Assembly: GCA_964454445.1 (NCBI GenBank)
Contig: CAYVTD010000001.1
Location: 62,121 to 126,120, forward strand
Source: an uncultured Hyphomicrobiales bacterium
GTDB lineage: Bacteria > Bacteroidota > Ignavibacteria > Kapaibacteriales > UBA2268
Reading direction: 5' to 3'
Length of the DNA stretch: 64,000 bases
Shown here piece by piece: positions 23,858 to 60,946 of the stretch (the stretch's first letter is position 1; every line of letters starts with the position of its first letter). A program made the position numbers and the translations under genes. Below the pieces are notes generated by a model that did not search any database, had not been told where the DNA came from, and saw only the letters and a program-made list of their open reading frames with translations.

Positions 23858-23919
23858 ATTTACAACCTTTTTTTATCAAATTTCTCTATTTAGTAACAAT
23901 AATATTTTGAGGAGTATCC

Positions 23920-24219
23920 TCAGTTAAAATCCCATTGGAGAAGTTGTGCATCCCAACTAATCCAATGCTTAAAATCAGCAATTTTATTAAGATGATTAGC
24001 AAAAAAAGTCAGCCTTTTTGGGATATTATGGACAAAAATAGAACCTGTCGGCTTGGCAACCCTTACCATTTCACTTATCCAACTTTCGCACCAGATAATA
24101 TATTCCTGAATCTTCAGGCTATCTTTATAAGTTTTGTACTCCTTTTTTAAATTAAACGATGTATCAGCAAAAGTTACATCAACAGAATCGTCGGGTATAT
24201 CTTTAAAAATTCTAAACAA
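23920..24219 (-). pseudogene. truncated beta-class N6/N4 DNA methyltransferase remnant (N-terminal ~99 aa only)
   Basis: IPDDSVDVTFADTSFN aligns to the MTase motif IV region (..DSVDLI..DPPYN), with DPPY replaced by DTSF. Downstream, KPTGSIFVHN matches the LSPTGSI.. block of M.RsrI-like enzymes. The ORF stops after 99 aa and lacks the FxGxG SAM-binding motif and the TRD. Confidence 0.45.
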
Positions 24220-24598
24220 TCCCCTTGAATTATTGTATTCAAATATTTGTCTATCATTTAAAATTTTTCCTGATTACTTTTTTAAGTCTTTCTATCTCAT
24301 CTTCTTGAAACTCGGCATTATAGAAATAAAATGTATTCTTTTCGATTACTGTCTTGAATTTTGTGTTATTATTTTTATTTTTTGTTTTCAAGATTATTAG
24401 TTTTATTTATTCTTAAAATGAATTTTACCAATTTAATAATAATTACCATTTTTTTAGACAATTTTTTAGTTAAAACATTTTAATCCTTCGAAAAAAGAAA
24501 AACAAAAGAAAATTACTCAACGACCTGCACATAAAATCTCTCTTCGTCTTTGGCACAAGATTTGTTTAATTCTTTAATATTCTAAGTAAGAAAAAAAT

Positions 24599-55310: not shown

Positions 55311-56081
55311 TTAAAGAACAAAATCTTCAAAAACAGAATAAATACCTTTTAATACAATGTCTCTTGAGATGACAACCCTAAATTTCCAATTTTCCATTGC
55401 AGGATAGACGAGAAGGGCTGCTCCACCGGTCAGAAAAACAAGCGGAATGTCGGCTTTTAAATTCTGTTGATTAATCTCTTCGCAGATATACATAATACCG
55501 GCGGCACAACTTCTGATAATACCGCTATTCATTGCCTCTATTGTATTTTCACCAGCTGCTTTCTCACTATATTTCAAACTAATTGGGCTCAAAGCCTTTG
55601 TTAATCTGCCAAGAGCATAGTTTTGGCTTTCTGCCCCTGCAAAGATAGCTCCTCCAACACATTTATAATCCTTATCGACAGCATTTATTGTAATTGCAGT
55701 GCCACAATCCACCGTGAAAAAAGGCGGTTTACTTTGTTTCACTGCTCCGAGCATTCCAAAAATCCTATCGCTACCCATACCAGTTATATTTGAAAAATCG
55801 AGCTGTGAATTATTCTGTGCATAAACCATAGCATCAATAAATTCCACATCGAAATGCTCTCCAATGAATCTTTTAAAAATATCGAGTTTTTCACTATTTA
55901 CTGATGAATAGGCAATAACAAACGGACATCGGCCTTCCTTGTTCAATAACTCAATAATCTCTGTTTGCCACCCATTTATGTATTTGAAAGCATGTGAGAA
56001 ACTCTTTGAGAACAGCTTTATTCGGCTATTGCCGATATCTACAGCTATGGCGAATCGTTCTTGATTGGTAAATGAAGACAT
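55311..56081 (-). CDS. coaX: type III pantothenate kinase
   Basis: FAIAVDIGNSRIKLF N-terminal ASKHA phosphate-1 motif, GMGSDR, GGA motifs. 256 aa. Confidence 0.8.
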   Translation of the reverse strand: MSSFTNQERFAIAVDIGNSRIKLFSKSFSHAFKYINGWQTEIIELLNKEGRCPFVIAYSSVNSEKLDIFKRFIGEHFDVEFIDAMVYAQNNSQLDFSNITGMGSDRIFGMLGAVKQSKPPFFTVDCGTAITINAVDKDYKCVGGAIFAGAESQNYALGRLTKALSPISLKYSEKAAGENTIEAMNSGIIRSCAAGIMYICEEINQQNLKADIPLVFLTGGAALLVYPAMENWKFRVVISRDIVLKGIYSVFEDFVL

Positions 56082-57598: not shown

Positions 57599-57846
57599 AA
57601 AACAATAACAAATTATTATTTTCTCATATATTTACAAATATTTTTTGCCTTTTGTAGCTTCTATGCTGAGGCAGTAAATATGTTGATAAATCAAGCTGAA
57701 AATATTAAGCGGTAAATGTTTTTATATTTTATAGGTTACACAGATATGAAAACGACTTGTCCTCAAAATTCAAGTTTTCAACAAAAAGAAAAATTTGTTT
57801 TTTTATTAATATAATTCTTTTGTATATTGCAATATAATATATATGG

Positions 57847-57954
57847 TTCTTTACACTTAAAATTGAACTGTTTTCTGTTAAAAAAATGGGGAGACCCTTA
57901 TTCTTTACACCTTAAATTGAACTGTTTTTTGTTTAAAGAATGGGGAGACCTTAA
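57847..57954. repeat. 2 x 54-bp near-identical tandem direct repeat
   Basis: Unit 1 (57847-57900) is TTCTTTACAC-TTAAAATTGAACTGTTTTCTGTTAAAAAAATGGGGAGACCCTTA. Unit 2 (57901-57954) is TTCTTTACACCTTAAA-TTGAACTGTTTTTTGTTTAAAGAATGGGGAGACC-TTAA. Identity is ~88%. Confidence 0.8.
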
Positions 57955-58073: not shown

Positions 58074-58397
58074 ATGAAAATATTTATTAGACTATTGGTT
58101 ATGATAGTGTTGATTTTATCAACATTCAACTCTAGATCATATTCTCAAATCTCATGCAGTGCACCATGGTTTGGAATAACAAAAAGTTATATTTTTTCAG
58201 CTCAATGTACAGTAAAAGTACATCTTTGTGTTTATTGTCATCCTGAAGCACCTATAGTAGATATTATTGCTATGGGATTATCTGATGTTTGCCCCGATGT
58301 ATCTGCTGCTACAATTTTTCAATTCGTGCAATGGCAAGTTTTAAATGATTATGCCAGTTTTTGTGGTTCAAAACCATGTTATCCGGTCCACCTTTAA
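58074..58397 (+). CDS. small secreted cysteine-rich protein; probably the N-terminal half of a frameshifted gene
   Basis: Signal peptide MKIFIRLLVMIVLILSTFNSRSYSQ and 8 Cys in an 82-aa mature part. Ends 36 bp after a T5 run. Confidence 0.45.
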   Translation: MKIFIRLLVMIVLILSTFNSRSYSQISCSAPWFGITKSYIFSAQCTVKVHLCVYCHPEAPIVDIIAMGLSDVCPDVSAATIFQFVQWQVLNDYASFCGSKPCYPVHL

Positions 58398-58690
58398 GAA
58401 TAAATTACTCTATTCCTATCTGCGTCAAAAAGAGTTACAATTATTTAAAAAATAGTTTGTCTATTTATTCTTGTTCAAATATAAGTGGTAATAATGCTTG
58501 TTATAAAGAATTTGATGTTTGTTGGAATGCTGTTCCTTTTCCAGGGCAAATATCAGTTACTCCAATCAGATGCTATACTTACGGACCATCAGATTGCCCT
58601 GGAGTTGAACCACCACCTGATCCTAAATTGCCATGGTTGAGTGATTGGGAAAGTCCAGAATGCTATGAAATTAAATGTGAAACATTTTGA
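58361..58690 (+). CDS. cysteine/proline-rich ORF in an overlapping frame (TTG start); probably the C-terminal half of the same gene
   Basis: 10 Cys and no signal peptide of its own. Its frame is reached from the upstream ORF by a +1 T at 58358-58362. Confidence 0.4.
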   Translation: MWFKTMLSGPPLRINYSIPICVKKSYNYLKNSLSIYSCSNISGNNACYKEFDVCWNAVPFPGQISVTPIRCYTYGPSDCPGVEPPPDPKLPWLSDWESPECYEIKCETF

Positions 58691-58750
58691 TATTGAGAGG
58701 AGTAAATTTCTTTACTCCTCATTTTTTTTCATGAATATAGGATCATAATT

Positions 58751-60946
58751 ATGAAATATTATACTATTTTAATCTTTTTTGTTTGTACACTTGCATATTC
58801 CAGTAATATTGAAATTATTCCATTAAACACTAATTTTAATGGGTTAATTAATACACCATACAACATATTAATCTATGGGGATAATGCAGTATATTTTTTG
58901 TCAACCGATAAAGGAGATACTTGGCAGCAGAAAACACTAAATGAATTTGGAAACATTGTTCAAATGACTTTCGAAAAAGATAAGATATATGGGGTTTTAG
59001 ATAATGGTGTAATTGTTCGGTCTGATGATTATGGGAAAACCTGGATTAAAAAGAAAATGACATTAAATAGTGGAGATAAATGCATATCATCATATTTAAG
59101 TAATAATAAGTTTTTTATAAGAACTCTCAACTCAATTAAATGCTTCTATGATGATTTGAATTTTGCTTATGAATCCATTGATCCGTTATTAAAACTCGAT
59201 CAATCATATTACATTTATTACAAATGCTTCTTTGTTCTTGACACATTACTATTTGCTACAATATATAAAGACAATCATAGTTCGGTTTTAATTATGAATG
59301 AGAATTTAGTTAGGATTAATGATGAGAATTTGAATCAGATAATTAATTGCAAATACTGCATTCTTGATGATGTATTTAATTATCAATCAAAAGTTGTTGT
59401 AAAAGTGGATGATAATTTATTTTTTACTAATGAAAACTTGACAGATTTACAACCAGTTCTCAAAGATACTAACATTTTAAATAATTTAATTAATTCTGGC
59501 CTAATGTCATATACATTAAATATAATCAATAACAAAATTTATATTGCAAGTAGTAAACAAAACAATGCGTTCAAAATTGGTAGATATTTTGGTTATCCAA
59601 CAACAAATCATAATATAGGGATAAATATAGTAGATAATATTGCTGATTCACTTAAACTTGTAGGAAATTATTTCGAAAATAAGTATTATACATATACATC
59701 AGATCCGAATTATTTTCTTTGGGATGGTATCTATAGTTCAGTATATTTTAATAAATTATCGGTTATTGAAGATTCAATATTTATTTTATATGGTCAGAAT
59801 AAAACAATTTTAATATCAAAAAATAATGGTATATCTTGGAAATTATTGTCTTACTTTCCATTTAGTGTACCAAAACTAATTTTAAATGATTCCACATTTT
59901 ATTTTGTGACTGAAGAAACAGATAATGTTGGGATTTACAGATCTGATGATAGTGGATTAACTTTCAAACCTGTTGAGTTAATGGATTCAGTTAGCCATTA
60001 TCAGCATTTTTCAAATGCACCTGTCTTTTATATGGATTCAACTGGTAATGGTTTTTTTACTGGTAATAAGGCAGTCGACAGTTATAAGAATAATTTTGCA
60101 TTTACAAAAGATTTTGGAAAAAGTTATAAATTTCTATCTTTTAATGATATATATATTTTTCCCAATGATATGTACTCATCAAACATTATTAAGGCAAAAG
60201 ATAAATATATATTTGCAACTAATTTAATACGCGGGAAAAATTATAGTTACTTACACTTTTTAGATACAAATTATAGTTCTATTAAGCGAATTAAAATAGA
60301 TAGCCTATATCAAATTCATCATATAGTATCTGAAGACCCAAAAGAATTAACTTGTTATACTTCTTATAATGATAGTATTTATTCTAAACCATATAAGTTC
60401 GAGATTAGTTATTCAATAGATAGTGGAAAAACCAAAAATCCTATAATAACATTCCCCATAAATGGCGAAATATCCCAAATATTCGAATATAATAAAGATT
60501 CTATTTTCATTAGTTCAACCGGAGTTAATAGAGTTTATCTTTTTGATAAAAAAAGACTCAAAATTGATACCGTTTTTATTAATGATGAAAGTGACTTATC
60601 ATTTTTAAAAGTAATATATCTTAAAAATAGATTCTATTTAATCGGAGATAATTTCTTTAAAGAAAGTATCCAAAAAAATGATTTTTCAAATTTTCGTGAT
60701 GTGCATTGGGATAATAGTCAACCATATTTCACTTCTGTGATTTCAGGCAATAACTCACTTGTTGCTTCTCTTAAAGATAGTTTAAGAGCTTTGAACTTTT
60801 ACAAATTAAATTTTAACGATACAATAGAAACAAATGTATCACAAACTGAAACAAGATATGCTACTCCCCAAGAATTGAACAGCTATTTCAAGCGAGACAA
60901 GAAAAGCAGGGTAATAAGCCAGAAAAAAGAACTATCAATTCTTTAA
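58751..60946 (+). CDS. secreted Asn/Ile/Tyr-rich BNR (Asp-box) repeat protein
   Basis: Signal peptide. Repeated Asp-box-like motifs (TDKGDTWQQ, SDDYGKTWIK, KNNGISWKL, SDDSGLTFKP, TKDFGKSYKF, SIDSGKTKNP). Very AT-rich codon usage. Confidence 0.55.
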   Translation: MKYYTILIFFVCTLAYSSNIEIIPLNTNFNGLINTPYNILIYGDNAVYFLSTDKGDTWQQKTLNEFGNIVQMTFEKDKIYGVLDNGVIVRSDDYGKTWIKKKMTLNSGDKCISSYLSNNKFFIRTLNSIKCFYDDLNFAYESIDPLLKLDQSYYIYYKCFFVLDTLLFATIYKDNHSSVLIMNENLVRINDENLNQIINCKYCILDDVFNYQSKVVVKVDDNLFFTNENLTDLQPVLKDTNILNNLINSGLMSYTLNIINNKIYIASSKQNNAFKIGRYFGYPTTNHNIGINIVDNIADSLKLVGNYFENKYYTYTSDPNYFLWDGIYSSVYFNKLSVIEDSIFILYGQNKTILISKNNGISWKLLSYFPFSVPKLILNDSTFYFVTEETDNVGIYRSDDSGLTFKPVELMDSVSHYQHFSNAPVFYMDSTGNGFFTGNKAVDSYKNNFAFTKDFGKSYKFLSFNDIYIFPNDMYSSNIIKAKDKYIFATNLIRGKNYSYLHFLDTNYSSIKRIKIDSLYQIHHIVSEDPKELTCYTSYNDSIYSKPYKFEISYSIDSGKTKNPIITFPINGEISQIFEYNKDSIFISSTGVNRVYLFDKKRLKIDTVFINDESDLSFLKVIYLKNRFYLIGDNFFKESIQKNDFSNFRDVHWDNSQPYFTSVISGNNSLVASLKDSLRALNFYKLNFNDTIETNVSQTETRYATPQELNSYFKRDKKSRVISQKKELSIL

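Follow-up and report, generated by a model that had tools for sequence, protein, structure and literature searches.

Two overlapping open reading frames on the plus strand (ORF1 and ORF2 in Table 1) lie at positions 58,074 to 58,690 of the window, by which we mean the whole 64,000-nucleotide stretch of DNA analyzed here. They raise a simple question: are these two genes, or one gene whose frame has been broken and, if so, where and by what? The initial annotation took them for a single secreted, cysteine-rich protein split by a one-nucleotide frameshift at a run of five thymines (T5), and offered three causes: a sequencing or assembly indel, a recent pseudogenization or slipped-strand phase variation. 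Both ORFs and the T5 run are present as annotated. A typical Sec signal peptide stands at the start of ORF1, and ORF2 has none of its own, also as annotated; an equivalent N-terminal basic and hydrophobic segment is found in 20 of 20 members of the family described below. The cysteines, which had been counted as 8 and 10 (18 in total), number 7 in ORF1, 8 in ORF2 and 15 in the intact protein. ORF2 is in the -1 frame relative to ORF1, its frame is open from position 58,349, and the two frames overlap by 49 nucleotides (58,349 to 58,397). Since one nucleotide inserted at any point of this overlap fuses the frames into a 205-residue product, the lesion cannot be placed by arithmetic alone. Public records give each half its own entry as a hypothetical protein (107/98 aa and 104 aa); on the reading argued for here, the two should be merged as one pseudogene.

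Table 1. Features of the split locus and of its downstream neighbor, in window coordinates
Feature	Position	Strand	Size or content	Source
ORF1	58074-58397	+	107 aa	
ORF2	58361-58690	+	109 aa from TTG, 104 aa from ATG 58376	
Signal peptide	58074-58148	+	Residues 1-25, MKIFIRLLVMIVLILSTFNSRSYS with Q next; putative SPI cleavage leaves Gln exposed	Read from sequence
N-terminal part of ancestral 205-aa gene	58074-58385	+	104 codons, ORF1 frame, through ...SKPCYP	
T5 run	58358-58362	+		Sequence
Lesion (1-nt deletion, frameshift)	58385-58386	+	GG run; GGG in intact allele	Allele comparison
Out-of-frame tail of ORF1	58386-58397	+	VHL and TAA stop; product of the deletion	
C-terminal part of ancestral gene	58387-58690	+	100 codons and stop, ORF2 frame, PPLRINY...EIKCETF	
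Terminator-like hairpin between small gene and partner	58697-58728	+	10-bp stem and T8	1 found versus 0.2 expected
Partner gene	58751-60946	+	BNR/Asp-box repeat protein with signal peptide, 731 aa (799 aa in intact lineage)	Pfam
Junction of 423-nt deletion versus intact lineage (L010 5787-6209)	60857-60858	+		BLASTN of L010-L012 against window

The relatives of the locus bear on the first part of the question. The first homologue found, P0001 (187 aa, 48% identity, E 5e-47), tracks ORF1 through ...ASFCG..C.P and then follows the ORF2 frame from GPPLRI. When 1.84 billion representative proteins were searched exhaustively with a profile, 19 matches came back, consisting of two repeat-protein false positives, P0001, ORF1 of the window (P0002) and about 15 further members. 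The full-length members are all single ORFs of 187 to 246 aa with N-terminal signal peptides, and a frameshift is present in none of them. Gln often stands directly after the predicted cleavage site, in line with the 'Q-rule' of Bacteroidetes for substrates of Sec/SPI (PMC5837995). The family is built on a scaffold of 14 cysteines (C28, 45, 52, 55, 73, 97, 102, 117, 134, 143, 150, 175, 197 and 202), every one of which is present in the window ORFs when these are joined at 58385/6; thus 14 of the 15 cysteines of the intact protein are at conserved positions. The Pro-rich tail that had been remarked on in ORF2 does exist, and it turns out to be the conserved C-terminal motif of the family (PPxG..W.E.WE..C[FY]...C), which the ORF2 segment carries as PPxPxLPWxxDWExxCYEIxC. 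The family HMM matches ORF1 over its positions 1-105 (E 2e-30 in the window) and ORF2 over 107-202 (E 6e-28), with the same division in every contig that has the broken allele; the intact allele, P0025, matches positions 1-202 (E 1e-61). The pair of ORFs does not occur by chance, since the family HMM splits across them. Judged by this profile, the window copy is a disrupted member of the cysteine-rich family: P0025 is a single uninterrupted ORF within about 190-250 aa with a signal peptide, whereas the window copy is not.

The named members come from Candidatus Kapabacteria/Kapaibacterium metagenome-assembled genomes (MAGs), where they are called 'hypothetical protein'; Kapaibacterium is placed by NCBI in Bacteroidota. 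The initial annotation had recognized no family, which holds for the curated libraries and fails beyond them, as an uncurated family of about 200 aa does exist. Pfam has no family for any of the 20 members, and Pfam and NCBIfam together have none for the window ORFs or P0025. A match to Pfam DUF6524 was rejected at 14.6-15.9 bits against a gathering threshold of 27; it covers the N-terminal 55 residues of ORF1, which is the signal-peptide region, and residues 1-90 of the fusion. A genome scan with the cysteine-rich alignment found nothing, and in the literature we found no published mention of the assembly or the family. Half-length natural variants that contain only the N-terminal half also occur (L025 2537-2923, 129 aa; P0013, 126 aa) and end just past C117, and the N-terminal half may, from its occurrence in this form, be an independent sub-domain. 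The window protein and P0001 share with mono-heme c-type cytochromes a CxxCH sequence, CVYCH, after the signal peptide. A heme c site was rejected because the His is variable in the family (CYYCN, CLLCS, CYKCD, CVKCN and others), and the CxxC is instead read as part of the disulfide scaffold.

Comparison with the intact allele shows where the base is missing. P0025 (205 aa) comes from seven ENA contigs and falls in a 90%-identity cluster with both window halves. It equals the repaired window protein apart from two substitutions, I26T within residues 1-104 (the ORF1 frame) and K201E within residues 105-205 (the ORF2-frame segment), and has SKPCYPGPPLRI at its junction. In the DNA, the window and contigs L002-L009 have TATCCGGTCCACC where contigs L010-L012 have TATCCGGGTCCACC, so that one G is missing from a run of three (G3); we refer to this deletion as ΔG. 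The true protein junction is ...ASFCGSKPCYPGPPLRI..., and Gly105 is now encoded, in the ORF2 frame, by 58,385-58,387. More distant homology agrees: the DNA of P0001 has TGT GAT CCA GGA CCA CCT against TGT TAT CCG G-T CCA CCT in the window, with CCA GGA CCA (L001) at the position of the lesion. Translated from its normal start, the ΔG allele yields 104 native residues followed by VHL and a stop, and this VHL tail was not found in any homologue in the family comparison.

The lesion is thus about 24 nucleotides downstream of the T5 run to which the frameshift had been assigned. Across the 11 related contigs this run never departs from its wild-type length, whether the allele is intact or broken. 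The proposed repair, one T added to T5, was translated and rejected: the resulting fusion (...ASFLWFKTMLSGPP...) has 13 cysteines and loses C97 and C102. Both of these sit downstream of the T5 run and upstream of the real lesion and, depending on the alignment, either every member has them or a single one does not. A search for intact orthologues, also proposed in the initial annotation, did find them, in the form of the unbroken P0025 of a sister lineage and of full-length homologues that are all single ORFs. The 205-aa allele bears out the view that the ORF pair is one secreted cysteine-rich protein split by a one-nucleotide frameshift.

The next question is whether the deletion is real. ΔG is found in at least seven separate assemblies (ERZ761564, GCA_029562445.1, ERZ27257461, ERZ27257495, ERZ27257494, ERZ795063 and ERZ27257488; contigs L002-L009); SPAdes and MEGAHIT were the assemblers, and an NCBI MAG is among the seven. 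The ORF half-proteins are on record from JGI contigs too, and ΔG is present on at least nine contigs in three repositories. The ΔG contigs are 99.95-100% identical to the window, except for L008 (99.16%), and the intact-allele contigs L010-L012 have 99.43% DNA identity to it. In a column-by-column comparison, ΔG is wholly linked to seven lineage SNPs (57,692, 57,822, 57,929, 57,974, 58,054, 58,150 and 58,673). Its recurrence in at least seven assemblies and its full linkage to a SNP haplotype show that ΔG is a real mutation fixed in one lineage, so that assembly error, phase variation and programmed frameshifting are all set aside. On the evidence of these contigs there are two sister lineages, of which one has kept the gene intact and the other carries it broken. 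As a separate observation, L008 has seven mismatches (six T to G and one T to C) within its positions 1-50 (window 57,613-57,659), at a contig end with 1.3x coverage; the likeliest source of these is noise from read ends or poly-G sequencing, as opposed to a difference between strains.

Each of the three readings set aside above has some evidence in its favor. If the indel were a sequencing or assembly artifact, the genome would really be intact and the base would have been lost as a homopolymer error. The lesion does lie within a short homopolymer (G3), and coverage of some supporting contigs is very low (2.7x for L002 and 1.3x for L008). However, the same ΔG recurs in at least seven assemblies of different samples by different assemblers, always on one SNP haplotype, and G3 was assembled for the sister haplotype in seven contigs. 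Contigs of the SPAdes and MEGAHIT kind are usually built from short reads, and a 3-nt run is not a typical site of short-read error. Nor were broken ORFs seen elsewhere in the window: 91% of it falls within ORFs of 150 aa or more, with lengths of up to 1089 aa, and the locus is the only ORF-poor gap of more than 1 kb. An artifact can therefore be set aside for practical purposes.

Slipped-strand phase variation, in which reversible mispairing at T5 or G3 would switch the protein on and off, is equally hard to credit. The locus does resemble the phase-variable poly-G genes of Neisseria, Haemophilus and Campylobacter in that a secreted or surface-related gene has its frame set by the length of a G run, and both G2 and G3 occur naturally in near-identical sequences. 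Tracts that slip at useful rates, as in contingency loci, are roughly 7 nt or longer, and G3 is far shorter. Unlike in those genes, moreover, the length of the tract is fixed per lineage: G2 and G3 are perfectly linked to the seven flanking SNPs and to a 423-nt deletion further downstream, which argues for two lineages with no switching within either, and T5 is invariant in 11 of 11 contigs.

A third reading is that the ΔG allele still yields the full-length protein, either through programmed -1 ribosomal frameshifting or through slippage during transcription. The shift needed is indeed -1 and the ORFs overlap by 49 nt, an arrangement of overlapping 0/-1 frames also seen in dnaX and in IS3-family transposases. 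Yet the overlap (58,349-58,397) has no slippery heptamer of the form X XXY YYZ, and its only homopolymers, T5 and A4, are too short for transcriptional slippage; a shift at either would destroy the conserved C97 and/or C102. In addition, the frameshift is conserved in no homologue, and the nearest relative is unbroken at the DNA level. Recoding is, in our judgment, the most improbable of the readings considered, and a real, lineage-fixed deletion remains the preferred one.

The broken gene does not stand alone. A large gene on the same strand, which we call the partner, starts 60 bases past the stop of the cysteine-rich gene (58,690 to 58,751) and has weak Pfam matches to BNR and PSII_BNR (Ycf48-like). 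Residues 1-705 of the window partner have 98.7% identity to the 799-aa protein of L010, and the partners of L013 (809 aa) and L016 show full-length homology to that of the window lineage (E 1e-63 to 1e-77). The small gene lies directly upstream of a gene for a BNR-repeat protein with a type IX secretion system (T9SS) tail in L001, L010, L013 (two copies), L016, L018, L019, L021, L023, L024, L025, L027, L029 and L030. The cassette is found in L014 and L015 (as in L013) and in L017 (as in L016) too, and the flanking genes are unrelated between loci. Across the cassettes the partners are homologous BNR-type proteins of about 720-816 aa. When GTDB genomes were searched with the partner protein, the small gene was present in 7 of 8 informative loci (L021, L023, L024, L025, L027, L029 and L030), the one exception being L026, where the partner occurs without it. 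Variations on the arrangement include L018 (560-4251), in which two small genes flank one large gene, and L025, in which the 129-aa N-terminal-half version is directly in front of the partner. Taken over these loci, gene order shows that the pair is a conserved two-gene cassette in Bacteroidota of the Kapaibacterium/Ignavibacteria type.

Several further features of the cassette can be added here. The partner gene occurs in two copies in several MAGs (L013 6001-9043 and 9793-12600; L018; L021/L024; L023/L029; L026/L027), and in most two-copy MAGs where the upstream sequence was checked it is the whole cassette that is duplicated; such copies within MAGs imply that the family expanded by intragenomic duplication. 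Most other cassette loci have only 6-13 nt between the genes, whereas the window has a 60-nt spacer with the hairpin and T8, which are the same in both lineages; this difference may mean a different expression coupling. L022 and L025 (CAZXYS010000042.1 and CAYVVD010000024.1) are TPA MAGs labelled 'uncultured Hyphomicrobiales' that contain a Bacteroidota-type partner gene, in L025 as part of a whole cassette, and probably either their taxonomic labels are wrong or the bins are contaminated. Between the two lineages, synonymous and nonsynonymous substitutions number 4 and 10 in the cassette and 8 and 5 in the flanking genes, counts that tend in the expected direction and are too sparse for an inference of relaxed selection. 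The type III pantothenate kinase gene coaX (window 55,311-56,081, minus strand) differs by five nonsynonymous and three synonymous substitutions, a small number of changes and yet a high nonsynonymous share for a housekeeping gene.

The partner, too, is damaged. Relative to the intact lineage, a 423-nt deletion removes its C-terminal 95 or so residues, its stop codon and about 130 nt of a roughly 210-nt intergenic spacer, and the same deletion is present in the independent ΔG contig L004. From residue 704 onwards the window partner runs into foreign sequence and on into the antisense strand of a convergent gene, and the truncated 731-aa ORF ends within the 3' end of that gene (overlap 60,935-60,946). 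The deleted tail (...SPYPIPASTFVKC...GIFDINGKIL...GSYFIVFNHNG...) aligns with the tails of the orthologues. It scores 26.4 bits (E 8.8e-6) against Pfam Por_Secre_tail, 0.6 bits under the cutoff of 27; against TIGR04183, the tail of the L013 orthologue scores 29.4 bits and passes the cutoff of 23, and that of L016 falls just under it at 21.4. The sorting domain of T9SS cargo (Por_Secre_tail, PF18962 / TIGR04183) is thus borne by the partner in intact loci, and it is absent from the 731-aa partner of the window. By comparison with these tails, the partner is a protein that has lost its predicted T9SS sorting domain in the lineage of the window through the 423-nt deletion. Both genes of the cassette are damaged in the same lineage, and the whole cassette appears, from these two lesions, to be decaying. 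The convergent neighbor, a Sortilin-Vps10 protein of at least 990 aa, also has a Por_Secre_tail. Its length of 990 versus 1081 aa was considered as a further lesion and rejected, as the ORF runs off the end of the window.

Taken together, positions 58,074 to 58,690 are a single ancestral gene, whose product is a disulfide-rich protein of 205 aa exported by Sec. ΔG (GGG to GG) ends this product early, leaving the second half as nothing but an out-of-frame ORF. The cassette would have been inactivated recently in the lineage of the window to give a pair of young pseudogenes. We regard this account, a single 205-aa gene broken by a genuine deletion and paired with a T9SS partner that is likewise damaged, as very probably correct. 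Of the three causes offered at the outset, it is recent pseudogenization that the fixed ΔG and the intact sister allele favor. The locus closely resembles lineage-specific frameshift pseudogenes, with which it shares a one-nucleotide deletion, an intact allele in a sister strain (99.4% identity) and a damaged linked neighbor; the only difference is that the gene belongs to an uncharacterized family. In this respect the frameshift is a case of routine strain-level gene inactivation, and we infer that the broken small gene has lost its function.

It could instead be argued that the gene withstands its split: the N-terminal fragment, once exported, would be functional alone, and the gene would be remodelled, not dead. 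Such fragments have natural counterparts in the N-terminal-half variants of L025 (in front of its partner) and P0013, ΔG is widespread, and the truncated ORF1 product, with about 82 mature residues and 7 cysteines, could still be exported. However, ORF1 ends before the invariant C117, which the short variants keep, and its seven cysteines are an odd number; the loss of the export signal by the partner in the same lineage argues for decay of the whole module. We consider a tolerated split unlikely and retain loss of function as the reading of the small gene.

What the intact protein does can be approached from its structure and from its neighbor. An AlphaFold2 model of the intact allele, built on a 20-sequence alignment, is one compact α/β unit (pLDDT 88.8, pTM 0.80) with a helix at residues 3-18 followed by a low-confidence linker at 19-24; an earlier type of input, a 3-row alignment, gave a model with a pLDDT of 38.5 that was discarded. 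Seven disulfides probably hold the intact protein in its fold. The fold search that the initial annotation had suggested, run as Foldseek against the PDB, yielded no convincing fold relative (best E 0.13, TM at most 0.25), a sequence profile search of the PDB returned nothing, and neither provided a functional lead. The suggestion that the protein is a candidate effector or toxin finds no support here: the small gene is the upstream partner of a T9SS-exported BNR-repeat protein, and in the window it is inactivated.

The small protein has a Sec signal peptide and, in Pfam and NCBIfam, no sorting domain or T9SS tail, and so is not itself T9SS cargo. A tentative proposal, drawn from the conserved adjacency of the two genes, is that the intact protein acts in the periplasm or at the surface as an accessory subunit and binds the T9SS-exported partner, for instance as a chaperone, an inhibitor or a co-exported subunit. 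Were this so, the loss of one gene of the cassette would remove selection on the other, and the paired lesions, a frameshift in one gene and the loss of an export signal in the next, would form a natural experiment on the mutual dependence of the two. In the same tentative way, the protein of about 200 aa and 14 conserved cysteines could be the founder of a new family with an unseen fold, serving as a dedicated partner for a clade of T9SS-exported BNR-repeat proteins in Kapaibacteria/Ignavibacteria. A compact disulfide-rich family with no curated entry or solved structural relative is here paired with T9SS cargo, within a part of Bacteroidota that has received little study, and the small protein is a candidate, open to testing, for an accessory factor that serves one particular cargo of type IX secretion.

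The surroundings of the cassette contain some minor features. Rfam returned nothing in the whole window or in the upstream region, the best match being RAGATH-7, whose 15.8 bits fall short of the cutoff of 111.8. A 741-nt segment at 23,858-24,598 is without an ORF of at least 150 aa and, likewise, without an Rfam match at the gathering threshold. Upstream of the cysteine-rich gene, at a distance of about 125 nt, is a tandem direct repeat (window 57,847-57,950) with two copies, 90% identical, of a unit of about 54 nt: TTCTTTACAC.TTAAATTGAACTGTTTT.TGTT.AA.AATGGGGAGACC. Neither an Rfam match nor a significant RNA fold (z -1.2) was obtained for the repeat. It occurs nowhere else in the window; both strain lineages have it, and it is absent upstream of the other family members. 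Contigs L004, L005, L007 and L009 begin or end within about 55 nt of it. The repeat could be a duplicated promoter or operator.
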